Part shown: in pieces, positions 3,135 to 33,418 of the stretch
Numbering within the stretch: position 1 is the stretch's first letter
Layout of the letters: each line of letters starts with the position of its first letter
From: a virus
Reading direction: 5' to 3' (one strand)
DNA length: 37,437 bases
Virus record (IMG/VR): IMGVR_UViG_3300013290_000001
Translations under genes and position numbers: made by a program
Notes under the pieces: generated by a model
Database searches by the model: none
What the model was told of the DNA's origin: nothing
Seen by the model: only the letters and a program-made list of their open reading frames with translations

Positions 3135-3204
3135 CCCGGTCGCCTGTTCCCGGTCTCCCGTCTTTTCTTTTCCTACCAGCTACGAGCTACCAGCTATGAG
3201 CTAT
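3135..3204. repeat. Intergenic heptanucleotide array (10 units in one register)
   Basis: cccggtc gcctgtt cccggtc tcccgtc ttttctt ttcctac cagctac gagctac cagctat gagctat. The last unit contains the stop codon (3201-3203) of the upstream gene. Confidence 0.8.
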
Positions 3205-3563
3205 CCTTTAAGAATTAAACTAAAACTCTGCGCTGCCGTCTGATTCTCACTCACCACAGTTCCCACACCCACACTGCGCAACTTCACCCACCGCGCTGCA
3301 AACAACTCATCCGGCAATTTCCTTGCCTCAGCTGCGGTTGTGGATAATCCGGAGATCTTCACGGCTGTTCCGGTCTCATCTTTCAGCGTGGTGAAGACCC
3401 CGTCTTCCTTTTCGCACACATCAAAAACAATATCCGCGGCGGTCCAGTCTTCACCATCATTCTTCAAAATCCCGCCAGCCATCTCGCGCAAATCAATCGC
3501 AGCACTCAACGCTGCCCCGGCTGCAATCGCCGCTTTTCTCACACCACTTTGTCTCGTCAACAT
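3201..3563 (-). CDS. Hypothetical protein (120 aa), tail-module position
   Basis: Strong RBS CAGGAGGATTATT before ATG 3563; TAG stop lies inside the heptad array. No recognisable motif. Confidence 0.7.
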   Translation of the reverse strand: MLTRQSGVRKAAIAAGAALSAAIDLREMAGGILKNDGEDWTAADIVFDVCEKEDGVFTTLKDETGTAVKISGLSTTAAEARKLPDELFAARWVKLRSVGVGTVVSENQTAAQSFSLILKG

Positions 3564-4541: not shown

Positions 4542-4577
4542 GGGTAAAGCATTTTATATCTTCAAAATGCTTTACCC
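4542..4577. repeat. 5'-UTR hairpin element, copy 1 (14-bp perfect stem)
   Basis: gggtaaagcatttt-atatcttc-aaaatgctttaccc with shared flanks tcctctcttcgtaa / actcaatcctcaaac. It lies between the stop at 4587 and the start at 4520. Confidence 0.8.
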
Positions 4578-4586
4578 ACTCAATCC

Positions 4587-7070
4587 TCAAACTTCACAAA
4601 TATTTGAAATATAAACATCATAAATTGTCAGCTGCATTGTGCTTGTCGGGTTCAAATCCCAACCCTTTATCTCAACATTGTCCAGGTACTGCCATTTATT
4701 CCACATGGAGTTCACATCAAACTGCCAGCACCTCACTTGTTTTCCATAATTTCCAGCTCCACAGCTTTTTGTCAGCCACGCATCCCCAATCGTCCCGGCA
4801 TATTCCCAGGTGCCATCCGTATAAAGCGTTCCAAATCCGATCCAGGCATTTCCACCATGATCCACATATCCCTTAATGTATGCACCAGCCTGCCCATACA
4901 CCGGAAAATTCGGGAAATAACACCACAGATTATGCACATCAAAACCAATCTGCTCGAGCGGATCAGCATTCACGCCCAAACGGCCATAATAAGACCAGTT
5001 TGCAGGTGCAAATGGTGATCGATACGATGCAGGACCATACGGAGATCCAACCGGGTACGTAGCCAGATTCTGCGGAGCGCAAATCCATCCCTCTGGGCCA
5101 CCACTAAAATCAAACGTATGTCCAATATTGAAATTAAATTCAGGGCTTACAATCGTCTTGACCTTTATTCCACCAATTACCGTACCAACGGCTGGGGCAA
5201 ACTTTGCAGTGATCCATTCTCCGGATGTAACCACCTCAGAAGCCTGAAATAATTCAGCCCCGGTACTGTCAACCGCCCAAATTTCATAAAAACCGGTAGC
5301 TTCCGTCATATACCACTTCCCGGCAACCCAAATCGTCCTCCGAGATCGAATAGTCACCGTTGTCGGGTAAGTAGAGCTGGCCATTCTCACAACCGTGCTC
5401 ACTGGAAAAATGTAATATTTTTGAACCGTCGGAGAAGAAATCAGATCCTTCGAACCGCTGAATATTGAAAAAGGTCCATTCGGCGCAGCATTCGGATCAG
5501 CAATACAATCTACCGGAACATCAATGGGCTCAGGGAATCCGGATCCACTGCCATCACCCGGTAATGTCGGAACTTCAGGCAATCCAGGATCATACGGATC
5601 ATCACTGATCGACGTCGTATCATAAATCAAGGGAGTCAGCGTCAAAATTGTCTGAACACTTTGTCCGCCTTCCTTCAACCAGCGTAGCTCAATTGAACCA
5701 ATATAAAAGGTATTCATAATGCCTAACGTAGTTGAGGTAAACGCCACCTTATCAAGCAAATCAAAATCAAATTGAATATCAGGTCTACCTTGAATGATGA
5801 TTTTCGGCGCTTTGCTCGGGTCCTTTAATTCGTTTTTGATAATTTTAGCAAAAGCCTCAGCATGGTTGATGTTCTGCAAATATTCAGAATCCAGAATAAA
5901 ACGTCTGTTTCCATATGCAGCCCGCGAGTTAGTATCACTCGCATTGAATTTTACAGCCCTGGTTACATATTCACGCCCCTTCAAATCCACTGAGGTAATA
6001 TACCCGTTGATTGGTGTCGCAACCGAAATCGTGATCGATTTCGTAGTGAGCGAATATGTGTAATCAATCACATTCGTGATCCAGATTCCGCTATTATCCG
6101 CTTTGGTGTTCGCCTGCAATCCCTCAAATGTGACATCAATATATTCCCTGTCCAGTTCTAATGTAAACGTGCGCCAGGTTGTAGAAGGCAACTCAATCTT
6201 GAATGGGCTCGGTAATGCGAGAATCGACTTCAATTCTCCCTTGAATGGTTTGTTCGCGATACACGTTACCTCATTACGCACATTTTCCCAGGGCATACTT
6301 ACCAAAATATTTTTCAATGTATCAGTCTGGTCCAGTGTATGAGTGTGTTGCGAGTTGTGCGATCTGGAAAAAAAGCAAAACCGGCCGTGCTTATTCACAA
6401 ACACATTCCCCAGTGAGGCAGTGGCTAATTTCTGCAATGTCCTGGCTGCATTCTCCTGATCTGGTGCCCAGCGAACGATCGGCTGGGTATCCGTATCTAT
6501 CGATCTCCCTCCGGAATAATCGGAATCATCCAGAACGGAATGAATACAATTTGAGATCGTCGTCCGGTAAATCGGTGTATCAACACCAATATCCCCCTCA
6601 GTCAGCAATTTCCACCCATCCACAAGGTCGATGTACATATTCTTACGGTCGTCATTCACCGGTCGAATATTTTCAATGAAACCAGTCATCAAAACAAAAG
6701 ATTCACCTGTGGAATTGTAGCGCACCGATAATTGCGCTCGTCTTCCGGGAACTACATTTGGGTACAAAGGGCTGCTGGCGTTGTAAGGGTCATAGCGACG
6801 ATCAGAATTATCCATCCGCAAAATGGCCTTCCCCATCTGCATCCGTTCAAAGTCATTTCCACCCTGCGCAACGTAATGATCACGGCCACGACGAAAACTC
6901 ACCAGCTCGTGCAGCCACTGCGCTTCATTCACTCCCTCATACGTGCCATCATTATTCCAGTCAACCAGCAAAATCCAGGTGCACTCACTATTCGCATCCG
7001 GCATTGATACCGCGGATCCAGACCCATACAGCGTGGTTGAGGTGTATTTGAAATCTCCATACTTGGCCAT
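4587..7070 (-). CDS. Distal tail/baseplate protein (Dit-like N-terminus with a long C-terminal extension)
   Basis: 827 aa immediately after the tape measure gene (TAATG overlap at 7070). The N-terminal ~200 aa resemble siphovirus distal tail proteins. Function inferred mainly from position. Confidence 0.65.
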   Translation of the reverse strand: MAKYGDFKYTSTTLYGSGSAVSMPDANSECTWILLVDWNNDGTYEGVNEAQWLHELVSFRRGRDHYVAQGGNDFERMQMGKAILRMDNSDRRYDPYNASSPLYPNVVPGRRAQLSVRYNSTGESFVLMTGFIENIRPVNDDRKNMYIDLVDGWKLLTEGDIGVDTPIYRTTISNCIHSVLDDSDYSGGRSIDTDTQPIVRWAPDQENAARTLQKLATASLGNVFVNKHGRFCFFSRSHNSQHTHTLDQTDTLKNILVSMPWENVRNEVTCIANKPFKGELKSILALPSPFKIELPSTTWRTFTLELDREYIDVTFEGLQANTKADNSGIWITNVIDYTYSLTTKSITISVATPINGYITSVDLKGREYVTRAVKFNASDTNSRAAYGNRRFILDSEYLQNINHAEAFAKIIKNELKDPSKAPKIIIQGRPDIQFDFDLLDKVAFTSTTLGIMNTFYIGSIELRWLKEGGQSVQTILTLTPLIYDTTSISDDPYDPGLPEVPTLPGDGSGSGFPEPIDVPVDCIADPNAAPNGPFSIFSGSKDLISSPTVQKYYIFPVSTVVRMASSTYPTTVTIRSRRTIWVAGKWYMTEATGFYEIWAVDSTGAELFQASEVVTSGEWITAKFAPAVGTVIGGIKVKTIVSPEFNFNIGHTFDFSGGPEGWICAPQNLATYPVGSPYGPASYRSPFAPANWSYYGRLGVNADPLEQIGFDVHNLWCYFPNFPVYGQAGAYIKGYVDHGGNAWIGFGTLYTDGTWEYAGTIGDAWLTKSCGAGNYGKQVRCWQFDVNSMWNKWQYLDNVEIKGWDLNPTSTMQLTIYDVYISNICEV

Positions 7071-8794: not shown

Positions 8795-8864
8795 CCTCAA
8801 CCCTTCCTGTACCCCGTAAGGGGTAAATCCTCAATCCTCAAAACTCAAACCTACTAGCTACGAG

Positions 8865-9875
8865 CTAAATCGTTCCCCGATCCGTAATAACCTGTACATT
8901 TAACAACTTCGCGCCTGTCACATCATATTTTCCATGCAAAATCGCAGTCCAAAGATTATTTCCATTGCTTGCACTTGCCAAAGGAATCACTTCTTCCCAT
9001 GTGCCCGAGAAATCTACCTGTAGCATGTGGTACACGCCCGTACCAATTTGCGGTCCCAAAATCTTCAGCCTTGCCACCTGCAACGTCTGCAAATTCAACG
9101 CGTCATAAATTGCCTCAGCGGTCGCATTTCCTTCAAATGTGAATGCTCCATTGATCCCGATCGCGCCTTGCCCATGCGTATCAAAATACTCATTCCCGGA
9201 TCCATGGAACTTTGGGTGCATCCCGGTTATGATGTCGATATCATATGCGCGCAATGTGGAGGCTTTTTCTGTGCCACCCACTCCCGCCCAGGTTGTATCC
9301 AGATAAAACCGCGTCAACTTACTGTTGATCGTGTGCAGCGTCGGGATGGCCAGCGCACCGGTAAAACTGGCTTTCGTGTTCTGCCTGCCAAAATAATTGG
9401 CTTCAATCCGCATCGCACTATCGCCACCGTCCTGGTTGCATTCTCCGGAGAGCTTGATGCGATCGAACATCACATACTCCGATTCAACCATCATTTCATC
9501 ATCACCACGCTCCAGGGTAATCGAATCGGTTTCATTGTCAGTGTCATCATAATTCGGGTCATAATTCCATAAATAATCACCCTGGGAAACCGTCTGTTCC
9601 ACAGCAGTGATATTCCCCTGCAACCCACAGGAAAACAACATCGGCAAACTCTGAAAATAAGCAGAATCCCAACTCAGCTTATCCCGTACCAAACGCCCGG
9701 CAATGTACGAACGCACAGCATCCACATTCACGCCCACATCCTCGCGCGGGTAAGTTGGCTTCCGATCCGGTGTAATGGATGGAACTGCCACTGGTAAAAT
9801 TCTGGTTGCTGCCACCGCAGTACCATGTGTATCCTCAATCCCGTATTGCATCTTTCTCAACTTTTCAACTGCCAT
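8865..9875 (-). CDS. Major tail (tube) protein
   Basis: 336 aa directly upstream of the chaperone pair. No sheath gene is present. Function inferred from gene order. Confidence 0.6.
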   Translation of the reverse strand: MAVEKLRKMQYGIEDTHGTAVAATRILPVAVPSITPDRKPTYPREDVGVNVDAVRSYIAGRLVRDKLSWDSAYFQSLPMLFSCGLQGNITAVEQTVSQGDYLWNYDPNYDDTDNETDSITLERGDDEMMVESEYVMFDRIKLSGECNQDGGDSAMRIEANYFGRQNTKASFTGALAIPTLHTINSKLTRFYLDTTWAGVGGTEKASTLRAYDIDIITGMHPKFHGSGNEYFDTHGQGAIGINGAFTFEGNATAEAIYDALNLQTLQVARLKILGPQIGTGVYHMLQVDFSGTWEEVIPLASASNGNNLWTAILHGKYDVTGAKLLNVQVITDRGTI

Positions 9876-9900: not shown

Positions 9901-9991
9901 CCTGAATCCCCAAAACCTCAAAACTCAAACCTCAAACCTCAAAACTTTTTTCCTATCAGCTACGAGCTATCTGCTATGAGCTAACAGCTAA
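9901..9991. repeat. Intergenic heptanucleotide array (13 units in one register)
   Basis: cctgaat ccccaaa acctcaa aactcaa acctcaa acctcaa aactttt ttcctat cagctac gagctat ctgctat gagctaa cagctaa. The stop of the 9974 gene lies inside it. Confidence 0.85.
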
Positions 9992-10432
9992 TCCATTCAT
10001 GATTTCCTTCACCTGCCAATTCACCACCAGCCCCAAATGCGGATCCTCATTCCCATACCGCAAAACGCCCATCGTGATCGGGTTGGTACTTGCTAACAAA
10101 AAATGCTCAACCGCGCCACCTAATTGCAAATTTGCTGCGGCCGCCACAATAATCTTTTCAAAATAAGTCAAAACAAATGGATAATTACTCTTGTTGATAT
10201 TCTTTGCAATGTGAAACTCACTCACCCCGTCATACACAGCCAGGCAAGGACCACCAGCAGAATATTGGATCTTCGGCACCCGCGGAACAATCGTCAAAGC
10301 GCAAGGAAACTCATTCAAACTTTCCGGAAACTCAGCCCGTGAGAACATCTTATATGATTTCAAACTCCCCCCCTTGCCGTTATCAATCGTCCCCCACACC
10401 TCAGCCACCTTATCAATCCAATCTGTAATCAT
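9974..10432 (-). CDS. Hypothetical neck/tail-completion protein
   Basis: 152 aa between the connector-like genes and the tail tube gene. No motif recognised. Confidence 0.55.
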   Translation of the reverse strand: MITDWIDKVAEVWGTIDNGKGGSLKSYKMFSRAEFPESLNEFPCALTIVPRVPKIQYSAGGPCLAVYDGVSEFHIAKNINKSNYPFVLTYFEKIIVAAAANLQLGGAVEHFLLASTNPITMGVLRYGNEDPHLGLVVNWQVKEIMNGLAVSS

Positions 10433-10433
10433 T

Positions 10434-10496
10434 CCTCAAACCTCAATCCTGAATCCTGAATCCTAATCCCTAACACCTAAACCCTAACCCCTAAAT
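10434..10496. repeat. Intergenic heptanucleotide array (9 units, all starting cct)
   Basis: cctcaaa cctcaat cctgaat cctgaat cctaatc cctaaca cctaaac cctaacc cctaaat. Confidence 0.85.
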
Positions 10497-11504
10497 CAAT
10501 GGTACAAAATAGTTGTATTGGATTTGTTCAATGACCGACTTCGGAAACTCATTGAAATAAAACGTCTCACCCGTCTCTACCGATCCAACCTTCCCAGCAA
10601 ATCCGGAATCAGCCTTTTTCAACATCAACGCAGCAATCTGTTTGCACAGATAATTCACATCCGGTGGCACCGTGTAGCGACTGATCGCCTTGGTATCATG
10701 CGCCGCTGCAGTCGTGCCATTCACACCGCGCTCTACATGGAAAGTCCGGTACACATATACATCCAGATTCGTCAGATGGTCCACCCTGGCAGTCCGGTTC
10801 CAGCCGCGTTCTACCAGCAAATCATTCCCGGAAATATCTCGTACCAGCATTTGTTCAAACTCAACCCGGATCACCTCGCCAATGTTAATCACCGTCCCAT
10901 CCAGCACCGTCACCTGGTCCTCTTCCGCATCCAGTGCTTCGTTCGTGTTCGTGGTCGCATCCGTCGCGGATCCAATTCCGGTCACCAGCTCCTGTTCACT
11001 TTCTATCAATAAAACCGCTCCAGGAGAAATTACACTTGCATCATCCACTACCAGCGTGGTCGCGCTGTTTGTCTGGCTGGCGACCGTCGCCTCTGTGCTC
11101 TGCGATTTTTCCCATAATCCCCAATTACCCAAAACAGACGTAACCCGGGCAATCGCAGGAAAGTAATACACCGTCCCAGAGTCCGGGTGCACCTTGATCC
11201 GCATATACGGACCATTCGCCCACAGTTTATTTTGCGGGTACAGGATATAATCACCGCTCTCCAGCTCGTCATCATCCACGGTGATCGTGGTTGCGCTCAG
11301 CAACGCAGGCACCAGCAACTCCTGGGATCCGTCCCCATCAAAATACCGCGTTTCCGAGATCGGGATAAAATTTCCGAATCTGTTCAAAATCCACTGGCTG
11401 GCAGATTGAATCATGTCATACACACGTTGTGCACCATGATTCCTCAATCCCTCATGCTCCAGATCATTCAATAACTCCTGCACCGTACAATAAACCTGTC
11501 CCAT
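10491..11504 (-). CDS. Putative head-tail adaptor/connector protein (function tentative)
   Basis: N-terminus YCTVQELLNDLE...VYDMIQSASQWILNRFG resembles gp6-type connector N-termini. Large central insertion. Position fits the neck module. Confidence 0.45.
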   Translation of the reverse strand: MGQVYCTVQELLNDLEHEGLRNHGAQRVYDMIQSASQWILNRFGNFIPISETRYFDGDGSQELLVPALLSATTITVDDDELESGDYILYPQNKLWANGPYMRIKVHPDSGTVYYFPAIARVTSVLGNWGLWEKSQSTEATVASQTNSATTLVVDDASVISPGAVLLIESEQELVTGIGSATDATTNTNEALDAEEDQVTVLDGTVINIGEVIRVEFEQMLVRDISGNDLLVERGWNRTARVDHLTNLDVYVYRTFHVERGVNGTTAAAHDTKAISRYTVPPDVNYLCKQIAALMLKKADSGFAGKVGSVETGETFYFNEFPKSVIEQIQYNYFVPLI

Positions 11505-11511
11505 AATCTCT

Positions 11512-11581
11512 CCTCAAACCTCAAACCTCAAACCTGAACCCTTCTTTTCCTACCAGCTACCGGCTACCAGCTACGAGCTAT
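11512..11581. repeat. Intergenic heptanucleotide array (10 units)
   Basis: cctcaaa cctcaaa cctcaaa cctgaac ccttctt ttcctac cagctac cggctac cagctac gagctat. Confidence 0.85.
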
Positions 11582-12105
11582 CTCTTATTACTTAAACCGT
11601 TAGCTATGTTTTCTAAGGCCTCTGCAAAATACTCTTTCACATCATCCACGCTCTTCTCAAACCCTTGCTTCAAAAATTCGCGTGCCTTGATCCCGTTCTT
11701 AGCAATCTTCCGTGCCACCAGAAAAGACACGCTCCGGATCTTCGCCTCATCTGTTTCATTGCGCAAAATCACCCGTCTTACCCAGGCAGTGATCGGCTCC
11801 ATCGGTGGGAACCTGCCACCAGGTTCTCGTCCAAATTCCATTACCTTCGGGTACACCTCATCCCGCAGAGAAGAACCCACCCGACCGATAATCGAAAGAG
11901 AAGAGATCTCCTGCACATCTGATCCGATTGACCCCCTCAACCGGCCACGATCCACAGGAACAAACGGAAGAACATTTTGCTCAATCTTCATCACAGTTTT
12001 ATCCATCGCCCGCACCAACTCGCGATTCGACAACTCCTCATAAGATTCCAGCAAAGCAATCTGCTCGCTCAATCCTTCTACCTCAATCTCATACCCAACC
12101 AGCAT
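11578..12105 (-). CDS. HK97 gp10-like head-tail joining protein
   Basis: PFVPVDRGRLRGSIG matches the conserved P-x-D-T/R-G-x-L-R-x-S motif of gp10-type proteins. Size and position fit. Confidence 0.65.
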   Translation of the reverse strand: MLVGYEIEVEGLSEQIALLESYEELSNRELVRAMDKTVMKIEQNVLPFVPVDRGRLRGSIGSDVQEISSLSIIGRVGSSLRDEVYPKVMEFGREPGGRFPPMEPITAWVRRVILRNETDEAKIRSVSFLVARKIAKNGIKAREFLKQGFEKSVDDVKEYFAEALENIANGLSNKR

Positions 12106-12137: not shown

Positions 12138-12181
12138 CTTATCACACCCTATGGGTGCAAACCTCAATCCTCAAACCTCAA
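12138..12181. repeat. 44-bp intergenic repeat, copy A (identical to 20060..20103)
   Basis: cttatcacaccctatgggtgcaaacctcaatcctcaaacctcaa; contains the small hairpin caccc-tat-gggtg. Confidence 0.85.
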
Positions 12182-12183
12182 TC

Positions 12184-12459
12184 CTATTTTTTCACCGCCT
12201 TGAAAACCGTCTTATCAATTGGCTCCTGTTTACCCTCGGTCGACGGGGGCTTTTCATTAGCTTTCGCCTTACGTGAAAATTCAGCCTCAGCTACCATCCG
12301 ATTTTCTTTTAAATGAGTCTTCGATCCCACTTCCTCCAGAACCCCGGGAGAATCGCGATTTATTGCCTCAGCCATATCTTCCTTCAGGTCAACAACATCA
12401 CCCTTCAACCACGGTCCCCCCAGACTGCTCTTGTAATTCCACTTAACCTTGTACTTCAT
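12184..12459 (-). CDS. Hypothetical protein (91 aa)
   Basis: ATG at 12459 follows a GC hairpin and a purine-rich leader. Lys/Glu-rich. Confidence 0.6.
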   Translation of the reverse strand: MKYKVKWNYKSSLGGPWLKGDVVDLKEDMAEAINRDSPGVLEEVGSKTHLKENRMVAEAEFSRKAKANEKPPSTEGKQEPIDKTVFKAVKK

Positions 12460-12478: not shown

Positions 12479-12498
12479 GGGCGGGGTCTCCCCCGCCC
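12479..12498. repeat. GC hairpin in a 5' leader, copy 1 (gggcgggg-tctc-ccccgccc)
   Basis: 8-bp perfect stem. The ~30-bp block gggcggggtctcccccgcccttcttttc recurs at 13363. Confidence 0.75.
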
Positions 12499-12505
12499 TT
12501 CTTTT

Positions 12506-12540
12506 CCTAACGCCTAACACCTAACCCCTAAACCCTAATC
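12506..12540. repeat. Intergenic heptanucleotide array (5 units)
   Basis: cctaacg cctaaca cctaacc cctaaac cctaatc; the last unit holds the stop at 12535. Confidence 0.8.
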
Positions 12541-12858
12541 ATCAATCACGTCACCAACATCCACCATGTAAGCCATCACATACCCTTCACCAGCAGTGAT
12601 CGCCTCATCCGGCAACACCACGTCGATCGTATCCGCAGCGCTGTACAGCTTACCACTGCCAGAATAAGCCGCTGTATTGGTCTCTGTTCCGGCATACGCA
12701 CCGACAGTACCCACTGTCACATCAGTATTATCCACCCAGCCATCCGGGTTCGCGCCATCTCCCACATCAATCGTAGGAGTACCACCAGCAAACAGCGTGG
12801 TAATAATACACACCACACTTTGCGGAGGAATAAACGTATTCTTAGGCACATCCAGCAC
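12535..12858 (-). CDS. Hypothetical head-module protein; the 5' end is uncertain (see finding at 12859..12950)
   Basis: The tracked ORF starts at GTG 12858 with no RBS. The same frame is open upstream to an in-frame TGA at 12895-12897. Confidence 0.55.
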   Translation of the reverse strand: MLDVPKNTFIPPQSVVCIITTLFAGGTPTIDVGDGANPDGWVDNTDVTVGTVGAYAGTETNTAAYSGSGKLYSAADTIDVVLPDEAITAGEGYVMAYMVDVGDVIDD

Positions 12859-12962
12859 CGCTTTCGTGCTGTTCTTATCGGCAAAGGTGAACTTTCACGA
12901 TCTCACCCACCGGCCTTTCAAACCATACTGTGCACTTGAACTTCCCACATCTCACCTCTCTT

Positions 12963-13004
12963 CCTAAAACCTAAACCCTAAGGCCTAAACCCTACGAGCT
13001 AACT
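12963..13004. repeat. Intergenic heptanucleotide array (6 units)
   Basis: cctaaaa cctaaac cctaagg cctaaac cctacga gctaact. Confidence 0.8.
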
Positions 13005-13343
13005 CGACGCTCCCACAATCCCAAACCACTGTACCCCATCACACCAGCACAGGATCGCCTCGTTCTGCGTCGGAGTACCGATCGTCGCGGGCGTATCATC
13101 CTGCACCGTGATAATCTCAGCGGCATCCGCCTCATTGCTGATTAAAATCACTACGCCCTTGCAGGCAGCCTCAGCAGGCAATACCACATTTCGGGCCGCG
13201 CCACCCGGATCAAACGAAAACCCATTGAACTGGTTAATCTCCGCCACCGTAATCGTACGATGGGCAGCCAGTGTTTCTTTCAATTTCGTGTTGATCCTAC
13301 TCGCCATATCGCTCGGCGCAATCGCAATTCTTTCTCTTGGCAT
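12999..13343 (-). CDS. Hypothetical head-module protein (114 aa)
   Basis: ATG at 13343 after a GC hairpin leader. Directly downstream of the capsid gene. No motif recognised. Confidence 0.6.
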   Translation of the reverse strand: MPRERIAIAPSDMASRINTKLKETLAAHRTITVAEINQFNGFSFDPGGAARNVVLPAEAACKGVVILISNEADAAEIITVQDDTPATIGTPTQNEAILCWCDGVQWFGIVGASS

Positions 13344-13362: not shown

Positions 13363-13382
13363 GGGCGGAGTCTCCCCCGCCC
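13363..13382. repeat. GC hairpin in a 5' leader, copy 2 (gggcggag-tctc-ccccgccc)
   Basis: One mismatch in the stem; same flanking sequence as the copy at 12479. Confidence 0.7.
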
Positions 13383-13398
13383 TTCTTTTCTTCCCTAC

Positions 13399-13426
13399 CA
13401 GCTACGAGCTACGAGCTACAAGCTGA
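13399..13426. repeat. Heptanucleotide array (4 units) spanning the capsid gene stop
   Basis: cagctac gagctac gagctac aagctga; TAG at 13418-13416. Confidence 0.75.
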
Positions 13427-14930: not shown

Positions 14931-15940
14931 TTCAAACTCCTCATTTGTAATTTAAGTTTTTCTTCCATCGCCCGCATCAACAATGCTTTGTCTTTCTCCC
15001 CGTCCTCGCCTTCAACCTCCTGATTCACCTTCGCGCCATCTATTCTGGAAAGGACCTTCTGCAATACGCCAATAGCCTGCTCAACCTCAGCACGTAGGGG
15101 CTGGGCTTGTCCCTGCCCGTCTCCCGTCTTCCGTCTCCCGTCGCTTTCAGCTTTCAGCTGCCTGCCCCGCTCCATGCGGGGTGAGCCGTCAGCCTCTCCC
15201 TCGAGAAAGAGTCCAGAGACTTCCTTCTCATCCAGCGCACTTAGCTCCTCCGCGGTCAAAAACTCTGGGGCAACTTTCCCCAACCGTCGATACTTAGGCA
15301 ATAACGCCCGATATCGCCGCTCGCGTACCTCATCGCTCTCATCACCTGGCGATAAAAAGATCTCGACCATCTCGGCCGCCACCTTCTCCCACTCAGGCTC
15401 TTGCTCACTACGCGCCCCGGCGTTATCTTCCTCTAAATCGGCCCCCCGTCCTCCGTCCCCCGTCTCCTTACCCTCCCCCTCAAACATTCTCTTCAACGCC
15501 TCATACTGCCGTTCCATCAGCGCATCCGGATCACCCGGCACTGGCACTCCGGAAATATCCAGTAATTCCATCTTTCGTTTTTTATCAACTTCCACAAAAT
15601 TCCAGCCCACAGAAACAGTATGCAAAAAACCGTCCCTGTATTTGCGTTCAACAGCCTTCGCAAACTCATCATTCTGATCAAATACCACCTCAGCCATCAA
15701 ACGATCGCCTTCAACCTCGGCATTTACTTTACCAAGCGGTAAATTTTTGCCCCAATAATCGTGCGCCCATAAAAAGACTGGATTTTTATGATAATTATCT
15801 AATAACCAATCATCCATATCCAGATCAATCCCATCGCGCTTGATTCCGGCCGTGCTCGCCGTAAACCGGATCGGTTCACCGGCTTGCGATCCACTCTCTT
15901 CTCTGCTAACATAAGCCCTCAAAAAATTTTTATCTGCCAT
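14927..15940 (-). CDS. Prohead protease (HK97/S78-like) fused to a charged scaffold-like C-terminal region
   Basis: NPVFLWAHDYWGKNLPLGKV resembles the S78 protease core. The C-terminal half is Glu/Arg/Lys-rich and carries two in-frame heptad arrays. Confidence 0.75.
   Translation of the reverse strand: MADKNFLRAYVSREESGSQAGEPIRFTASTAGIKRDGIDLDMDDWLLDNYHKNPVFLWAHDYWGKNLPLGKVNAEVEGDRLMAEVVFDQNDEFAKAVERKYRDGFLHTVSVGWNFVEVDKKRKMELLDISGVPVPGDPDALMERQYEALKRMFEGEGKETGDGGRGADLEEDNAGARSEQEPEWEKVAAEMVEIFLSPGDESDEVRERRYRALLPKYRRLGKVAPEFLTAEELSALDEKEVSGLFLEGEADGSPRMERGRQLKAESDGRRKTGDGQGQAQPLRAEVEQAIGVLQKVLSRIDGAKVNQEVEGEDGEKDKALLMRAMEEKLKLQMRSLK
15116..15164. repeat. In-ORF heptanucleotide array (7 units) inside the protease-scaffold gene
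   Basis: cccgtct cccgtct tccgtct cccgtcg ctttcag ctttcag ctgcctg; no stop in the reading frame (..QLKAESDGRRKTGDGQG..). Confidence 0.8.
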
Positions 15941-15961
15941 CTCTCGCTCCTCTCTTCGTAA

Positions 15962-15997
15962 GGGTAAAGCATTCTATATCTTCAAAATACTTTGTCC
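15962..15997. repeat. 5'-UTR hairpin element, copy 2 (degenerate)
   Basis: gggtaaagcattct-atatcttc-aaaatactttgtcc. 10 of 14 stem positions still pair. Flanks are the same as in copy 1. Confidence 0.7.
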
Positions 15998-16004
15998 ACT
16001 CAAT

Positions 16005-16060
16005 CCTCAAACCTAAAACCTAAAAACTCAAAACTCAAAACTCAAAACTAATTCCTAAAC
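16005..16060. repeat. Intergenic heptanucleotide array (8 units)
   Basis: cctcaaa cctaaaa cctaaaa actcaaa actcaaa actcaaa actaatt cctaaac. Confidence 0.85.
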
Positions 16061-18181
16061 GATCGGGAAGACCGTACACCTGCAATTGATATCTTCCTCA
16101 GCCAGTCCGATCTGTCCAGGAGCAGGACCACTGCCAGCGCCAACTTCAAAATCATCATCCAAATCAATCCCCTCCTGATACTTGCGATGTGCCGCCACAT
16201 GCGAATCACGTGTACGCTCATCTAGGGCAGCCAGCCAGCCTTTCCGGGTCACAACCCCTTTTTGTTTATATGCCAGCAATTTTCCGCCATTGCTCGCTGT
16301 AACAACCTCAGTCCTGGCAATCGTCTCAGCAGAACTCCGGATCCGATCACCCATAATTTCTTCAACCCGTTGTTTTAACTTATCAATCCCCTCGCCAGCA
16401 TCTATTCCCTCTGCTAGTGCTTTTTTCAACGCGTTCCAGGTAGTCTGATTTACTTCCACCGCAAACCGCTGCGCCTGTTGCTCAATAAAACGCACAACCT
16501 CAGGTTGTTTGATATCGAACGAACTCTGGATCTTCAATTCATCCAGCGCAGCCCGTCCCATCTCTTCCACCACAAAACCAAAAATAGGTCGTATTTTCAA
16601 CCTGAATTTTTTGATCCATTCTTTGACATTGAAAGGATTTTTCCAGTCTCTGGTTGCACCTGCACCAGTATTGAGGTTGTCAGCTTCAGCATTCCGTAAT
16701 CCGGCCAAAACGCTTTCACGCTGCGATTTCATTAACTCCTCTACCACATCCCCAAAGCGCTTCTCCAATGGTTCAATCGATCGCACAAATACATTCCACA
16801 TCGCCTCATGTTCCCGCGACCCATACTCAATCACCCTGGTATTTCTTTGCGCCTTTTTATTTCTTTGAGTCTCCGCGTCCTTTTCTTTTTCTTCACTGTC
16901 AGCTGTGAGCTGTGAGCTGTCAGCATCTTTATCCGGTCCCCCGTCCCCCGTCTCCGGTCCCTTCAACAATTCCTCAACGGGAACAGACGTGTATGACGCC
17001 CACCACGTATTCCCCCACGGATAAGGATCCAGCCCCTTCTTTTCCCGCCATTCATTAATCGTTAACGCTCCCAGCATAATCTGGTCTTTCTCTCGCATCC
17101 AGGAATCTGTTTCTAATTCCTGTAAAACTTCAATATCGGATGAATCCAGTTCAATCTCATCCGCCTCGCCCAAAAACATGGGCAATAATTTCTCTTTCAA
17201 TTCATCTGTAATAAATCTACTCGATGGAATAACCGAGTGTGTATATGCTGCTCGCATCGCAGCATTAAAATTCTCATACGTGCGCTGTCCACCCACAAGA
17301 TCCTGTGGCCAATGATAAGCCCGGCAAACCTCTTCCAGCGTAAAACGTAAACCACCCAAAAATTCTGCATCTTTAGGAGTAACACCAAATTCTTTTGCTT
17401 CAATCTCAAACCGGAAAAAATTCCATCTATGCGCTCGGTCAACACCTCTGGTTCGCTTATCAACCTGATTTTCAATTTCCTCAGCCTGTTCCTTTGTTAA
17501 TATCCGTGCTTTTGGCCACATCACACCGCCCATCTGATTTCCATTTTTAAACAGATTCATATTGGATTTCAAAGCACCATTGGCATAATCAACTGAGAGC
17601 CGCGCAGCTGCAATCGGGGATAATCCGGAAAATTCATCAATCGGATTTGGATAGCGGAACCAGATCACCTCATCCGGTTCGAACCATAATTTTTGCCCAT
17701 TTACTTCATATTCATACCCGCGGATATAATTCACTGGATCCGGAAAAACAGTCACTTGTGATGGTTTTCCCCACCAGATTTCTTTAGGAGTTCCCTTCCC
17801 ACTTTCACCACGTTCCAAAAACCAGAAACAAGAACCCCAAATTCCAAGACTCATGTCTGTCATTTGCAATAACCGGTTCCACGTCCAGTGAGGGTTCACC
17901 CTGTGTAATAATTCATATAAACGGCCTGTTTCAACCTCTCGCTTTTTCCCCTTCACAAATCGAAACAACGCCAAATCCAATGTCGCCATCAGCTGCGCCC
18001 GCCAGGTAACGATCGAATAGATACTGTTCGAGGTCGCAATATAATTCCCGTACTCCTCAGGTGTATAAGTCGATGGATCCACACCCCAATAACTCAAACT
18101 CGGGTCCACCAGTGCCTTACCCAGCACAAACTCCCGTAATTTCTTCTGCACCACCAAACTCAACCCGTCAAATAATCCCAT
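16055..18181 (-). CDS. Portal protein fused to a Mu F/SPP1 gp7-like head morphogenesis domain
   Basis: The N-terminal ~400 aa are portal-like (..NPIDEFSGLSPIAAARLSVDYANGALKSNMNLFKNGNQMGGV..). The C-terminus ALDERTRDSHVAAH...EEDINCRCTVFPIV is the Mu F-family signature. The two halves are joined by an in-frame heptad array. Confidence 0.85.
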   Translation of the reverse strand: MGLFDGLSLVVQKKLREFVLGKALVDPSLSYWGVDPSTYTPEEYGNYIATSNSIYSIVTWRAQLMATLDLALFRFVKGKKREVETGRLYELLHRVNPHWTWNRLLQMTDMSLGIWGSCFWFLERGESGKGTPKEIWWGKPSQVTVFPDPVNYIRGYEYEVNGQKLWFEPDEVIWFRYPNPIDEFSGLSPIAAARLSVDYANGALKSNMNLFKNGNQMGGVMWPKARILTKEQAEEIENQVDKRTRGVDRAHRWNFFRFEIEAKEFGVTPKDAEFLGGLRFTLEEVCRAYHWPQDLVGGQRTYENFNAAMRAAYTHSVIPSSRFITDELKEKLLPMFLGEADEIELDSSDIEVLQELETDSWMREKDQIMLGALTINEWREKKGLDPYPWGNTWWASYTSVPVEELLKGPETGDGGPDKDADSSQLTADSEEKEKDAETQRNKKAQRNTRVIEYGSREHEAMWNVFVRSIEPLEKRFGDVVEELMKSQRESVLAGLRNAEADNLNTGAGATRDWKNPFNVKEWIKKFRLKIRPIFGFVVEEMGRAALDELKIQSSFDIKQPEVVRFIEQQAQRFAVEVNQTTWNALKKALAEGIDAGEGIDKLKQRVEEIMGDRIRSSAETIARTEVVTASNGGKLLAYKQKGVVTRKGWLAALDERTRDSHVAAHRKYQEGIDLDDDFEVGAGSGPAPGQIGLAEEDINCRCTVFPIV
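16898..16960. repeat. In-ORF heptanucleotide array (9 units) at the portal/MuF domain junction
   Basis: gtcagct gtgagct gtgagct gtcagca tctttat ccggtcc cccgtcc cccgtct ccggtcc. It translates as GPETGDGGPDKDADSSQLTAD. Confidence 0.85.
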
Positions 18182-18217: not shown

Positions 18218-18252
18218 TCCTATCAGCTATCAGTTTTGAGCTTTGAGCCGTT
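18218..18252. repeat. Intergenic heptanucleotide array (5 units)
   Basis: ttcctat cagctat cagtttt gagcttt gagccgt. Confidence 0.7.
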
Positions 18253-19813: not shown

Positions 19814-20010
19814 CAATTTTCTTCACTCAACACTGTGCGAACAAAACAATCTTTTGCTTCAAGTAATTTACGCATACCAGCGGATTTTTCTGCACAATCT
19901 GGTAGGGTTTCTTCCATCAAATTCGCAAGCTCACAAATTGGCTTAGATACTTCCTGCAGTTTTTGCGGAAGATGTTTATATTCGAAAAACTTTATTGTTG
20001 TTGATCCCAT
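19813..20010 (-). CDS. Hypothetical small protein between terS and terL
   Basis: 65 aa, RBS AGGAGAAATT, stop overlaps the terL start. Confidence 0.6.
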   Translation of the reverse strand: MGSTTIKFFEYKHLPQKLQEVSKPICELANLMEETLPDCAEKSAGMRKLLEAKDCFVRTVLSEEN

Positions 20011-20059
20011 AATTTCTCCTGTTTTTTCTCAATCCTTATCACACCCTACTGGTGCAATC

Positions 20060-20103
20060 CTTATCACACCCTATGGGTGCAAACCTCAATCCTCAAACCT
20101 CAA
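20060..20103. repeat. 44-bp intergenic repeat, copy B (identical to 12138..12181), preceded by a partial tandem copy at 20033..20057
   Basis: Read directly. The tandem units are tccttatcacaccctactggtgcaa and tccttatcacaccctatgggtgcaa. Confidence 0.85.
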
Positions 20104-20125
20104 ACCTCAAACCTCAATCCTACGA
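20084..20125. repeat. Intergenic heptanucleotide array (6 units)
   Basis: cctcaat cctcaaa cctcaaa cctcaaa cctcaat cctacga; it contains the terS stop at 20120. Confidence 0.85.
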
Positions 20126-20764
20126 GCTATCACCTTCAGACTTCTTTGCTCTTCTCGCAATTTCCATCAACTCCGCCTCACTCAACTCGCTCATCTCATC
20201 GTCGCCAATCTCAGCCTTTACATCCACCCGGCTCCTGGGAACATAATCACCTGTCATCTCAAAGAACAATTTACGATCAGGATTCGATCGATGATCTGAA
20301 TTGCTCGCGCTATCCACCAAAGCCTTGATCACATCCGCTCTGTGTTCCAGCATCGTGGCCGATTGCAATAGAGAAATCGCCCCATCAATATCCGGGGATT
20401 TCTTTCGCCAGGTGGCAATCACCCGGTCAGATGTCAGACCCAGCACCTTCTGCGCAAACTCATCCTGCGTCTTTGGCCAGCGGTTTAACTTCGGTGAACT
20501 CGCCCACGCCACAAAACACGCAATCCGCCACGGCCATTTGCTGTTCAATAATTGCTGGTAGGTATCCCACCAGCCCAATCTCGCATCTCCCGGTTTAGTC
20601 TGTGTATGTAATTGATCTAGAGCAACCTTTGCACCCATCGAGCGCCGTGCCTTCTCCTCAGTCGTGAAGACAACCTGCGCGTCACCATCCTCCAGCTCAT
20701 CAATCTCCAATCCCAGGCTTAACTGCTCAAAATACTCAGGGTGCAATTTCTTTAAATCAATCAT
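20120..20764 (-). CDS. terS: Terminase small subunit (putative)
   Basis: HTH-like PKTQDEFAQKVLGLTSDRVIATW, acidic C-terminus, position upstream of terL. Confidence 0.6.
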   Translation of the reverse strand: MIDLKKLHPEYFEQLSLGLEIDELEDGDAQVVFTTEEKARRSMGAKVALDQLHTQTKPGDARLGWWDTYQQLLNSKWPWRIACFVAWASSPKLNRWPKTQDEFAQKVLGLTSDRVIATWRKKSPDIDGAISLLQSATMLEHRADVIKALVDSASNSDHRSNPDRKLFFEMTGDYVPRSRVDVKAEIGDDEMSELSEAELMEIARRAKKSEGDSS

Positions 20765-22605: not shown

Positions 22606-22635
22606 CTTTCTCTCCTCTCTCTAGCTCTTGGTAAG

Positions 22636-22670
22636 AGTAAAGCATTTTTATCTCTCAAAAATGCTTTACT
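22636..22670. repeat. 5'-UTR hairpin element, copy 3 (14-bp perfect stem)
   Basis: agtaaagcattttt-atctctc-aaaaatgctttact, upstream of the holin-like gene start. Confidence 0.8.
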
Positions 22671-22712
22671 CCCTAACACTTAATCCCTAACACCTATCAC
22701 TTGAATCAAAAA

Positions 22713-22740: not shown

Positions 22741-22783
22741 TCATCTCTGCAAGTGTCCGGAACTACATCCGATCTGCCTTGGC

Positions 22784-26181: not shown

Positions 26182-26226
26182 CACTCACCTCAACCCTCAA
26201 ACCTGAATCCTAAATCTTGACCGCTT

Positions 26227-26409: not shown

Positions 26410-26431
26410 CTCTTTTTCCTTTCCTCAATCC

Positions 26432-26704
26432 TCAATCCTCAAACTTGAATTTCTTCATCTTCGCAAAAACCGGATGATCTAACTTATCCTTCGACACCAG
26501 CTCTTCAGAAAATCCGGATTCCACCCAGTCACTTACCCGATAATGGGATATTCTCAAACCGTACTGAATAGCATGCTTGACTGATTTTTCCTGCAGCCAA
26601 TCAGCAGCATCCTTACGTATAAATTCATCCTCTACATAAACATCCCGGATCGCTCGGATTAAAACTGCAGCCATCAAGCGTCGAATTCCCCTCATTTCAT
26701 ACAT
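26432..26704 (-). CDS. Hypothetical protein (90 aa), first gene after the large noncoding region
   Basis: RBS GAGGGGGAGAT before ATG 26704. Confidence 0.6.
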   Translation of the reverse strand: MYEMRGIRRLMAAVLIRAIRDVYVEDEFIRKDAADWLQEKSVKHAIQYGLRISHYRVSDWVESGFSEELVSKDKLDHPVFAKMKKFKFED

Positions 26705-32472: not shown

Positions 32473-32500
32473 TATTTAATCCTTTCCTCAAACCTCAATC

Positions 32501-33418
32501 CTACGATCTACCAGCCCCAACATCCCCTCTCTCCACCGCCTCCTCCAAATCCCCCATCCCCGGCTGCACATAGCGCGTCGTCGTCGTCACACGTTTATGC
32601 CCTAAAATCTTCTGCACCTCGGTCAACTTTGCCCCCGCATCCAGCATAGATTTCGCGCTCGTGTGTCGCAAAGCATGGGGACTCAATTCCGGCATCCCCA
32701 TGCGTTCTGAGAGCGCCTGCAGGCGTTTCTGAGCGGCTCTGGGTGTCAACTTCTCACCATTTTCGCCAGAAAACACAAACTCACCCGCTCTGAATCGATC
32801 TGAGAGGTGATCTGAGAGCATTTCGCGCACCGATTTCGAAAGCGGTACCACCCGGAACACATCACCCTTACCAGCGCGCACTTTTACCAGTCCTTTGCGC
32901 TCCGAGATTTCAATATCCTCACGCAGCAACCCCAACACCTCAGAAACACGCAGCCCGGCAAACAACATCAAACCTACCATCGCCTGATCGCGGATCGCGC
33001 GCTCGCGTCGCAGGGGTGTGTTGGCAGAGTTCACATCCATCTCCAATAACCGCAACACTTTGCGACGGTCCGCATCCGTCAACCACCTGGGTGCCTGGGA
33101 AACTTCCTCAGCGCGTGGGATTCGTTTCATAGAAAACAATTTCAATCCCAGCTCAGACTCAAAATAAGCGCACAGCATACCTAAACTTGCCCGTTTACGG
33201 TTCCAGGTAGCAGCAGAAAGCCGCTCCGTCTCCAGAGCATAAGAGCGGTAATGGCGCACATCCGTGCTGTTCATTAGATCCGGAGCGAACTTGCAACCCG
33301 CGTTCATCACCTCAAACCAACGCGCGTACAGGGATACATCCAGCAAATATGCGTAAATCGTTTTTTTTGAAACAACCCGCTCTTCCAACCAATCCGAAAA
33401 ACCATCCAGCCAGTTCAT
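32501..33418 (-). CDS. Tyrosine recombinase (phage integrase/XerCD family)
   Basis: AGLRVSEVLGL (Arg I), HALRHTSAKSM (HxxR) and ILGHKRVTTTTRYV (His plus the Tyr nucleophile). Confidence 0.9.
   Translation of the reverse strand: MNWLDGFSDWLEERVVSKKTIYAYLLDVSLYARWFEVMNAGCKFAPDLMNSTDVRHYRSYALETERLSAATWNRKRASLGMLCAYFESELGLKLFSMKRIPRAEEVSQAPRWLTDADRRKVLRLLEMDVNSANTPLRRERAIRDQAMVGLMLFAGLRVSEVLGLLREDIEISERKGLVKVRAGKGDVFRVVPLSKSVREMLSDHLSDRFRAGEFVFSGENGEKLTPRAAQKRLQALSERMGMPELSPHALRHTSAKSMLDAGAKLTEVQKILGHKRVTTTTRYVQPGMGDLEEAVERGDVGAGRS

Follow-up and report, generated by a model that had tools for sequence, protein, structure and literature searches.

Tandem heptanucleotide arrays at the late-gene junctions of a temperate siphovirus-like phage of Anaerolineaceae

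The IMG/VR virus record IMGVR_UViG_3300013290_000001 comprises 37,437 nt of DNA, hereafter the window, in which many junctions between co-directional genes are occupied by degenerate tandem heptanucleotide arrays, the element that an earlier note made from the letters alone had pointed out and that we follow up here. The ends of the window overlap by 127 nt, indicating a circular assembly and a genome size of 37,310 bp. Between ~34.0 and 0.1 kb the genes are encoded on the minus strand, and a small block at 34.1-36.9 kb is on the plus strand; the gene set includes those of the large terminase (TerL, 18266-19816), a portal-MuF fusion (16055-18181), a capsid-like (major-capsid-like) protein of 504 aa (13416-14930) preceded by a protease-like protein of 337 aa, a tail protein (1759-3120) and a reverse transcriptase (303-1586), besides a tape-measure-like protein, an SH3 lysin, DUF5131, a primase, a tyrosine integrase and a serine recombinase. 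The window represents a temperate siphovirus-like phage that has a circular genome, carries a diversity-generating retroelement (DGR) and was found integrated in the chromosome of an Anaerolineaceae bacterium. When 12 kb was compared by megablast with 50,697 phage records, no match was obtained, and the nearest cultured phage by tblastn of the portal protein was Geobacillus phage GBK2, with 26% identity.

Read on the mRNA strand, the junctions follow a common order. The stop codon of the upstream gene is the TAG of the first unit of an A array, (CTSRTAG)n, which consists of four to five TAG-N4 units around an AGCT core; a purine tract, GAAAAGAAG, follows and leads into a B array, (TTTGAGG / ATTGAGG / GTTTAGG / ATTCAGG)n, after which come an optional hairpin, a purine-rich ribosome-binding site (RBS) and the ATG of the next gene. 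A third unit family, the C type, reads GACGGGA/GACCGGG. The thirteen consecutive heptamers that the earlier note had listed at 9901-9991 match the sequence exactly, and its further statements that most units carry TAG or TGA, rotated through all frames by the 7-nt period, that the upstream open reading frame (ORF) ends inside the first unit at six sites (9974, 10491, 12535, 12999, 13416 and 20120), and that B units set the Shine-Dalgarno (SD) core GAGG every 7 nt on the way to the true RBS were all borne out, the ORF stop being the TAG of unit 1 at these six sites and at additional ones. Two of its generalizations had to be narrowed: units end in AGG or GAGG in the B family (TTTGAGG, ATTGAGG, GTTTAGG) but not in the A family (CTSGTAG), and a single 7-nt register over both families, as at 9901-9991, is not a general feature, since the A-B phase offset, read from the sequence at the three junctions that contain both families, was 2, 3 and 1.

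All the arrays lie on the minus strand. The A-type array at 9953..9994 (UUAGCUG UUAGCUC AUAGCAG AUAGCUC GUAGCUG AUAG) begins in the last five codons of gene 9974-10432, supplies its TAG stop (9974-9976) and is followed by a B-type array of ~5 copies (UUUGAGG, UUUGAGU and related units, 9908..9947) located 5' of the RBS of gene 8865-9875. From the stop of this latter gene, A units pass directly into B units (8823..8869), with a small hairpin at 8805-8830. At 3172..3206, five TAG-N4 units extend from the stop of gene 3201-3563 and give way to GAAAAGAAAAGA and a C-type stretch (GACGGGA/GACCGGG, 3136-3163). The whole 58-nt gap at 10429..10497 is filled by a B-type array (GGGTTAG GGTTTAG ... GATTGAGG TTTGAGG) that holds the stop of gene 10491-11504; 8 nt separate its penultimate GAGG from the start ATG of gene 9974-10432. 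Upstream of gene 10491-11504, an A-type array of five TAG-N4 units (11548..11582) starts at the stop of gene 11578-12105, and a B-type array (TTCAGG, then three TTTGAGG, 11510..11543) runs into the RBS, GAGGAGAGATT-ATG. Further B-type arrays leave the stops of gene 12184-12459 (12157..12186, then a hairpin of the H3 family at 12141-12156), of gene 12535-12858 (GTTTAGG/GGTTAGG, 12504..12541, then AAAAGAAG and an H1 hairpin at 12479-12498), of the portal gene (~8 units, 15997..16057, then an H2 hairpin at 15962-15997 and the RBS) and of gene 20120-20764 (6 units, 20079..20122, then two H3 hairpins at 20030-20086). One A unit precedes units of the GTTTAGG type at 12961..13001, from the stop of gene 12999-13343; an A-type array at 13394..13425 proceeds from the stop of the major-capsid-like gene to an H1 hairpin (13363-13382); and a degenerate A-type array, with GCTCAAA twice and CTGATAG twice, separates the TerL and portal genes (18218..18252). 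The remaining junction arrays are a B-like 14-nt unit present twice at 22664..22697, placed ahead of an H2 hairpin and of the RBS of gene 22153-22605, which is the first of the late operon, B-type arrays of four units at 26186..26220 and of three units at 26419..26446, the latter spanning the stop of gene 26432-26704, and two B units at 32480..32503, immediately past the TAG that ends the tyrosine integrase gene.

Only about five arrays occur outside gene gaps, and those within genes are stop-free and lie in disordered linkers. Such is the case of the arrays at 16895..16961 (CTGACAG/CTCACAG, GACGGGG), which encode PETGDGGPDKDADSSQLTADSE in the portal-MuF linker, a segment hypervariable in length and sequence among homologues; others were found at 15114..15162 in gene 14927-15940 (GACGGGA four times, GCTGAAA twice) and at 15441-15468, 20977-21006 and 32261-32285. 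The process that makes arrays acts genome-wide, and selection decides the site and form of those that are kept.

The periodicity is statistically confirmed. Tandem Repeats Finder (TRF) returned 57 rows for the window, 39 of them with a period of 7, 14, 21 or 28 and nearly all of these in gaps between minus-strand genes; they amount to ~25 period-7 arrays, and 20 of the 26 arrays with at least three copies have period 7. Coverage includes 3173-3203, 8829-8852, 9911-9946, 9953-9990, 10429-10495, 11512-11535, 11550-11580, 12158-12185, 12506-12538, 12963-13002, 13395-13424, 15998-16051, 20080-20121, 22666-22693 and 26422-26442, to which a simple detector of period-7 runs adds 18230-18251, 26186-26220 and others. 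Fourteen of the fifteen array sites proposed by the earlier note hold at least two units; the remaining one, 4578-4590, is marginal (~1.5 units). Enrichment of period 7 over shuffled intergenic DNA, which that note had suggested as a check, is evident: pooled intergenic identity at lag 7 was 0.362, as compared with 0.277±0.008 in dinucleotide shuffles (z=10.5), with further signal at lag 14 (z=5.8) and lag 21 (z=3.6), and rose to 0.411 (z=13.2) in the gaps of 3121-26431. Coding DNA gave 0.26, with no period-7 signal, and in ~1.6 Mb of control bacterial loci period 7 was not preferred. At the level of motifs, TAG-N4-TAG-N4-TAG occurs 24 times in the window (0.05 expected) and four successive AGG-N4 units 17 times (0.01 expected), all 41 matches being on the minus, that is the coding, strand; GAGG reaches 17.5 per kb in intergenic DNA read on the sense strand, as against 5.6 in coding DNA and 0.4 on the antisense strand. 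The claim that nearly every gene junction is built in this way was overstated, since arrays are clear at ~16 and marginal at 3 of the 42 same-strand junctions, but it is mostly true of the late operon (20.1 to 3.1 kb), with arrays at ~13-14 of its 16 non-overlapping junctions. Same-strand junctions free of arrays are overlaps, very short gaps or longer gaps without them.

Each end of an array touches a translation signal. Beyond the ORF stop, additional stops follow at +5, +12 and +16 or +19 in eight junctions and at +4, +11 and +18 in two more, so that all frames are closed within ~21 nt. Closure of the three frames no more than 24 nt past the ORF stop was found in 9 of the 24 gaps of at least 40 nt, against 0.89±0.92 expected from shuffles and 3.24±1.54 at random positions in the same gaps. 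At the other end, the distance from a B array to the ATG is 1-22 nt, B arrays being confined to the sense strand, and the final B unit is often the real SD sequence, as in GGTTTGAGGAGAGATT-ATG and GATTGAGGTTTGAGGA-ATG. The B arrays are near-unstructured as RNA, most folding at -1 to -5 kcal/mol; values from -1.1 to -8.2 kcal/mol were obtained for nine of the ten B or mixed arrays, the exception being 12963-13001, with a minimum free energy (MFE) of -9.4 kcal/mol. Hairpins follow some arrays, none with a U-tract on the sense strand. Promoters were also considered as an explanation of the junctions and rejected, since they show no excess there (26 found, 26.9 expected).

Three families of dispersed, stable hairpins (H1, H2 and H3; -9 to -21 kcal/mol) recur among the junctions. 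H2 has the form GGGTAAAGCATTTT-loop-AAAATGCTTTACCC, folds at ~-20 kcal/mol and is present in the window at 4546-4581, 15962-15997 and 22636-22672, always just 5' of an RBS and usually followed by TTAC, in other cases by ATAC, GTAC or AACA. Its 21 distinct variants include compensatory changes (TAAAGC/GCTTTA and CAAAGC/GCTTTG, as well as in the upper stem), and it was also detected in the viral loci L100, L165 and L235-L246 (here and below, labels in L denote the loci and contigs compared), with multiple copies per contig in ~9 IMG/VR contigs, some of the H2-bearing contigs having no detectable protein similarity to the window. Whole junction cassettes are repeated too. The segment 4528..4592, comprising a B unit, the H2 hairpin, TTAC and the RBS, is 94% identical to 15948-16012, and 12138-12185 corresponds in the same manner to 20060-20107; both pairs, 94-98% identical, join non-orthologous junctions. 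H1, GGGCGGGGGAGACCCCGCCC (-20.6 kcal/mol; 12479-12498 and 13363-13382), is followed by a T-run on the plus strand only and so resembles an intrinsic terminator of antisense transcription within the late operon; it looks like a putative terminator of this kind. The A-rich tract GGAAAAGAAG, found behind many A arrays, is the complement of the H1 T-run. H1 was not found in IMG/VR.

Comparison with related phages places the arrays in one lineage and reveals what they stand in for. Relatives with at least 71% portal identity (L100, 84%; L104, L111 and L112, ~87%; L101, 76%; L106-108, 71%) carry arrays, with 21-57 period-7 bases per kb and long, array-filled junctions; syntenic relatives at 45-60% portal identity (L103, L109, L110, L105 and L013-15) reach in most cases only 0-8 bases per kb, with junctions of 1-13 nt. 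An exception is L014 (57%), whose 12.8 bases per kb come wholly from one period-21 repeat (5381-5453) in the portal-homologous region and not from junction heptamers. Phage lambda has 1.2 period-7 bases per kb, and a scan of metagenomes with the portal protein yielded two loci only. The array-less relatives have compact stop-SD junctions of the type TGAGGTTGATATG, [TGA]GGTTGAT[ATG], [TAG]GAGGATTTT[ATG] and [TGA]GAGGTAAGT[ATG], and the B unit (GAGGATT, GAGGTTT, TGAGGTT) corresponds to tandem copies of the "SD plus spacer" of these junctions. Orthologous proteins keep their lengths (504, 337, 336 and 152 aa), which means that the arrays start exactly at the ancestral stop position, just as they end in a real SD sequence. 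Within a single lineage of siphophages of Anaerolineaceae, then, arrays would appear to have taken the place of the short stop-SD junctions that the ancestral operons had.

The turnover of these junctions is fast. As the earlier note had suggested looking at, array lengths were compared among related genomes, and both units and lengths differ at orthologous junctions; L100, for instance, departs from the window in both respects and has a few period-8 arrays built around the AGCT core (AGCTGTTA). Between L111 and L112 the first 1398 nt of the portal gene show 100% identity and 380 nt at the 3' end of TerL 99.7%, and the TerL-portal junction between these two segments consists of ~60 nt of GATTGAGG/ATTCAGG units in L111 and of 121 nt of TTGACAG/GCTCAAA/GGCTAAA units in L112. 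The 121-nt junction of L112 recurs unchanged in L104, although the flanks of this locus match those of L112 at only ~95%. In L108 (~1540-1560), an 18-nt insertion, CCCAAAGGGCATGATATA, with a short self-complementary stem-loop, CCCAAAGGG, lies inside an A array as compared with L106, despite the identity of both portal proteins. These cases show that junctions change by cassette replacement much faster than genes do by substitution, and recombinational exchange at junctions is thereby demonstrated, even though the arrays of the window itself are identical in three assemblies. Modules of the form ACCCWANGGG-YRTGATA, like the insertion of L108, recur in L100 and in the window, where they correspond to H3; the 18-nt insertion could therefore be a very small mobile module.

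Divergence does not erase the repertoire. The window and L100 have an identity of 0.36-0.62 at 4-fold synonymous sites in 15 of 15 genes, near saturation and uniformly low, so that recent swapping of modules between both phages was discarded; they share unit families, H2, and H1 at the same junction. The contigs L237, L240 and L242, with TerL proteins at 45-49% identity, carry on the sense strand ATTGAGG, TTTTGAG, CTGATAG, CTCAAAG, GTTGACA, GACGGGG, GGCTAAA and GTTTAGG together with H2; neither these units nor H2 are present in relatives that are structurally closer (TerL 66-75%). A repertoire shared at such distances is not the decayed remnant of an old local slippage; either the sequence of the units is constrained, or cassettes are still spreading among the phages of one community. 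Gene order has also changed: the 175-aa gene precedes the 337-aa gene in the window and L100 and follows it in L103, L109 and L110, and the 65-aa gene, which L100 does not have, lies before TerL in the window but, in L103 and L110, upstream of the lysis genes. The moved genes (10491-12105 and 19813-20010 in the window) are all flanked by arrays.

The suggestion that the repeats hint at a cyanobacterial host did not survive. On the 191.7-kb ENA contig k141_169764 the phage is integrated beside patatin, PRK, mreBCD, PBP2 and minC genes, and the PBP2 of this contig is 92% identical to that of an Anaerolineaceae metagenome-assembled genome (MAG) and 84-88% to those of several other Anaerolineaceae/Chloroflexi MAGs. 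Prophage flank and PBP2 identity together identify the host as a member of the Anaerolineaceae (Chloroflexota) and not a cyanobacterium. No HIP1 motif was found in the window or the host flank, and the 7.8-kb host flank of the prophage is devoid of heptamer arrays. The phage has 21.3 period-7 bases per kb and the chromosomal loci of the host clade (~400 kb of Anaerolineae loci) 0.83, a ~25-fold difference, and a genome-wide host feature was consequently rejected for these loci and the prophage flank. The G+C content is 37.8% in the host flank and 46.8% in the phage, and in the region of L017 13599-21362 the phage-host boundary lies just beyond the end of the CBM_5_12 gene, next to which stands the serine recombinase gene in the circular form. 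As for the possibility that the arrays were artefacts of assembly, which the earlier note had named as a refutation, DNA 100% identical to the window, arrays included, exists in three independent assemblies (ENA ERZ27315036, JGI 3300034783 and JGI 3300002498), and with lengths of 20-60 nt the arrays are shorter than the assembly k-mer; an artefact is therefore ruled out.

Arrays of this kind extend well beyond the lineage of the window. The pattern (TAGCTNN)x3-TAG occurs in at least 120 IMG/VR contigs, when only a handful would be expected by our estimate for 18 fixed bases in a collection of that size, and (TTTGAGG)x3 in 12 IMG/VR stretches. We compared the proteins of the window region 1759-30180 with sampled stretches of 80 other array-bearing viral contigs (E<=1e-8) and found no protein in common to them save two weak portal/TerL matches, a comparison that would miss small or diverged proteins; any trans-acting partner is hence more likely to be universal, such as the ribosome or release factors. 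Several of the contigs have 10-20 period-7 arrays per 11-14 kb. Of a total of 235 arrays, 182 (77%) are intergenic, with 97 in co-directional, 33 in convergent and 25 in divergent gaps, and 32 of the 97 co-directional ones start within 3 nt of the upstream stop. Unit families of their own were observed in L113, L115, L151, L156, L181 and others within L113-L192 (G+C content 27-64%), among them AGAAATT/TTTCCAA, AGCTAAT and CTTCTGA in 15 copies. Pairs of inverted heptamers, e.g. (GGTTTGA)n facing (CCTCAAA)n, are present in L006 (10790-10870), L007 (5226-5303) and L009 (1186-1319) and would form long intergenic hairpins. Among cultured phages, a BLAST search with one junction retrieved just one array, (TTGAGGT)x6 in Acinetobacter phage SHI, which lacks the architecture.

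Several heptameric systems invite comparison. The short tandemly repeated repetitive (STRR) sequences of cyanobacteria are, like the arrays of the window, tandem heptanucleotides that are intergenic and present in multiple copies, but their units differ (STRR1 CCCCAGT, STRR2 TTGGTCA, STRR3 CAACAGT; no tandem copies on either strand of the window) and they belong to heterocystous cyanobacteria, in contrast to a Chloroflexota host from whose clade the sampled chromosomal DNA lacks such arrays. The HutP site of the Bacillus subtilis hut mRNA, UAG-N4-UAG-N4-UAG, is the pattern of A arrays, which place four to five UAG-N4 units on the mRNA strand, with the 24 sense matches to three UAG spaced by 4 nt already mentioned. 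Unlike the hut system, the window encodes no HutP-family protein (none in ~40 phage proteins searched with Pfam and PHROGs), shows no clear terminator/antiterminator pairing and has dozens of sites with varied units. The start-associated sequences (SAS) and extended SAS (ESAS) of Cluster K mycobacteriophages are a phage-specific conserved motif that includes the SD and recurs at many gene starts; they resemble the arrays as an SD-bearing repeated motif and differ in being a single 13-bp motif per gene, neither tandem nor hypervariable.

Among bacterial repeats, heptanucleotides are the most abundant class of long simple sequence repeats (LSSRs) with 5-11-nt units in prokaryotes and have been ascribed to polymerase slippage (Mrazek 2007, as cited in PMC4679880). 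In the outline given by PMC4679880, LSSRs share with the window short head-to-tail units with dominance of heptamers, a mostly non-coding location and a sporadic distribution across lineages. The window indeed has 20 period-7 arrays of at least three copies by TRF, all but ~5 of its arrays are in gene gaps, and mutability is apparent from L111, L112 and L104, which differ at junctions with 95-100% identical flanks. LSSRs, in that same outline, are features of bacterial chromosomes, whereas those of the window belong to a phage, occupy most non-overlapping operon junctions, are anchored to stop and SD, lie on the sense strand only and draw on ~10 unit families. The TAACTGA repeats of marine Beggiatoaceae, some cyanobacteria and Bacteroidetes, in 2-6 copies or more and a few nt upstream of starts, have been proposed to play a role in translation, with S1, Csp or CsrA put forward for them, and their patchy distribution suggests horizontal spread (MacGregor 2015, PMC4679880). 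They are stop-bearing (TAA, TGA) heptamers in forward orientation, near start codons and over the RBS position, just as B arrays lie forward and 1-22 nt before the ATG; but they consist of one unit forming a bacterial genome-wide network, while the phage has many families, an anchor at the upstream stop and true SDs that are kept, and TAACTGA itself is present in the window as four single copies and never in tandem. The GGGNATC repeats of Xanthomonas and Nostoc (Rehm 2015, PMC4692102) are placed as our arrays are, between co-directional ORFs, within 50 bp past the stop and on the sense strand; they are transcribed, and their four G3 tracts form G-quadruplex (G4) structures in vitro, whereas the arrays of the window have no canonical G3 x4. 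In Haemophilus influenzae, tandem heptamers upstream of hmw1A/hmw2A, whose copy number varies, underlie phase-variable adhesin expression (PMC2424069, PMC8262952, PMC12721329); this 7-bp simple sequence repeat is a single contingency locus of a pathogen, whereas the arrays, known from sequence, are found at many junctions of an operon. Heptamer elements have been described in Geobacter as well (PMC2700814). None of the unit sequences of the described bacterial heptamer systems is found in tandem in the window. The closest described phenomena are all bacterial, and full-text literature searches yielded no description of heptamer arrays as a phage gene-junction architecture, in agreement with the novelty presumed by the earlier note.

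Taken as sequences, the arrays are phage- and lineage-specific, sense-polar, anchored to stop and SD, hypermutable and exchanged as cassettes. The explanation to which we give about an even chance is that they represent phage-borne hypermutable simple-sequence repeats of the LSSR/STRR kind, formed by amplification of heptamers that contain stop and SD. The insulation, ribosome standby sites or tuning of translation that they would offer may be selected for, or may simply be what keeps the repeats harmless. They would originate by slipped-strand or template-switch amplification of the junction's own stop/SD signals and spread by gene conversion or cassette exchange; they might then persist as each array closes three frames within ~21 nt past the end of the upstream gene, after which SD-like sites and a C-poor, weakly structured spacer would precede the next start. 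A tightly coupled junction would in this way become an insulated one with independent initiation while the genes remain unharmed, and the repeats could be kept because each copy still bears a stop and/or an SD. The wholesale replacement of arrays between near-identical strains, their copying between non-orthologous junctions and their stop-free form in disordered linkers fit this explanation.

A number of points weigh against it. We infer insulation and re-initiation from the sequence, and each downstream gene has its own strong SD; relatives that lack arrays live with compact junctions, so that related phages can do without arrays; an SD-like motif is missing from A units, and the units ATTCAGG, GCTCAAA and GACGGGG have no stop. 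The MFEs of the arrays do not exceed those of composition-matched shuffles, so that their low structure is compositional only, and selection for unstructured RNA was discarded. Simple slippage, moreover, does not explain the recurrence of ~10 unit families and H2 at 45-49% TerL identity, nor the arrays of L100 at the synonymous divergence described above; this recurrence points to a constraint on sequence or to active horizontal spread. Nor is the near-exclusive period of 7 explained, given that control bacterial DNA has no such preference.

The same features have been weighed under other explanations. It is possible, though clearly less likely, that the arrays are selfish or neutral DNA, i.e. 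slippage products and hairpin modules propagated by molecular drive in which stops, SD and polarity reflect a purifying filter. The wholesale replacement at one junction between near-identical strains, the 18-nt hairpin indel between strains with an identical portal protein, the arrays inside coding linkers, the existence of relatives without arrays and the presence of arrays in gaps of all three orientations (97, 33 and 25; 77% intergenic) in the 80 contigs all accord with it, whereas a small common repertoire and an H2 that persist across synonymous saturation, the retention of ~1-1.5 kb in phage genomes that are normally streamlined and the preference of stop-rich arrays for the 5' end of gaps (9 observed, 3.2 for random positions) do not. 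Somewhat more tentatively, the arrays might be a functional, hitherto unrecognised class of phage cis-elements, with a small, sequence-constrained set of NAG-N4 units and a conserved hairpin read on the polycistronic mRNA by a universal or host factor (the ribosome, release factors or an oligomeric RNA-binding protein) and cassettes exchanged between junctions and between unrelated phages of one host community. An unlikely alternative would make them platforms on late mRNA for an oligomeric regulator, HutP-, TRAP-, Csp- or S1-like, that reads NAG-N4 and controls translation, stability or antitermination. The exclusively sense matches to TAG-N4 x3 (24) and AGG-N4 x4 (17), the AG kept at a fixed phase in nearly every unit family, the repertoire conserved across divergent phages and a fixed 7-nt period that fits a protein register speak in its favour; but by our own estimate roughly one in two purine-rich heptamers would contain AG in any case, the AGCT core is also found in period-8 arrays, different families are interchangeable at one junction and no window protein is common to the sampled stretches of other array-bearing phages. 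Pfam and PHROGs detected no HutP, TRAP, CsrA, Hfq or KH-like domain in ~40 phage proteins, and a phage-encoded protein that binds or anneals the arrays was accordingly rejected.

Selection for the exchange of modules between divergent phages, with arrays and hairpins as conserved linkers that offer short homologies in a modular evolution of the Botstein type, likewise seems improbable to us. Junction cassettes are exchanged independently of their flanks, units and H2 are the only near-identical DNA in common with phages at 45-49% TerL identity, and the altered gene order of the array clade (175-aa, 337-aa and 65-aa genes) is located in all three cases at array junctions. Against this stand the uniformly low synonymous identity of the window and L100 over 15 genes, which leaves no recent swap, the lethal deletions that direct repeats between essential genes would also invite, and the weakness of selection for evolvability, recombination being perhaps a by-product. 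That the repeats act on transcription or mRNA as sense-strand G-quadruplexes, like GGGNATC in Xanthomonas and Nostoc, is very unlikely, in spite of a location as in Rehm et al. (co-directional ORFs, just past the stop, sense strand; PMC4692102), of telomere-like arrays at 10459-10497 (GGGTTAGGGTTTAGG) and in L101 (GGGTTAGGGGTTAGGGGTTAGGG) and of 112 sense GG x4 motifs against 5 antisense ones; the only G3 x4 motif of the window lies in coding DNA (~29714) and none within an array, A-type arrays have isolated G only, and the GG bias follows from a coding strand that is G-rich overall. Finally, we attach practically no credence to a derivation from host cyanobacterial STRRs carried by a cyanophage, or to an assembly artefact: the heptamer period is the sole likeness to STRR, and the Anaerolineaceae host, the lack of HIP1 and of tandem STRR1-3, the array-poor DNA of the host clade and the three identical assemblies contradict it.

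Should the arrays be cis-elements, they would provide an evolvable translation "knob" for each late gene as well as crossover points for module exchange, widespread in uncultivated phages to judge from the at least 120 IMG/VR contigs retrieved with one unit pattern. If they act on translation, the orthologous late operons with compact junctions and with repeat junctions of 60-165 nt would be a natural experiment, and a direct test of virion-protein stoichiometry and of the needs of termination-reinitiation in Chloroflexota. If they are selfish, streamlined phage genomes would be open to simple-sequence DNA that "pays its way" via stop and SD signals, and such DNA would make recombination hotspots and changes of gene order. 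In any case, strains can be told apart by their arrays even where kilobases of the adjoining genes are identical, and similar ones are found in many uncultivated viral contigs, so far unsurveyed. Array-encoded C-termini and the excess of TAG stops are also relevant to annotation. TAG is the commonest stop codon of the 43 genes (21 TAG, 16 TGA, 6 TAA); the window contains no tRNA genes and its ORFs are intact in code 11, for which reason a suppressor tRNA or recoding was rejected as the cause of this use of TAG. The coding strand is G-rich and C-poor (G 30%, C 17%), with 11.7% C in the intergenic sense DNA of the whole window.

Two other regions of the phage deserve mention. A complete DGR occupies 303-1884 on the minus strand, with the RT gene at 303-1586, the template repeat at 1520-1631 and the variable repeat at 1773-1884, the latter located at the 3' end of the tail-protein gene 1759-3120; the repeats have 112 nt and differ at 16 positions, 15 of them at template adenines. 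The Rfam family RT-18, associated with DGRs, scored 59.4 bits at 1404-1481 and was the only known RNA family in an Rfam scan of the window. The 353-nt gap at 22606-22958 contains a promoter-like site with an extended -10 (22927-22899) and an intrinsic terminator on the sense strand (22736-22716, then a T-run); arrays, an H2 hairpin and then the first late gene, with its RBS, come next. This layout resembles the PR'-tR' late-control region of lambda.

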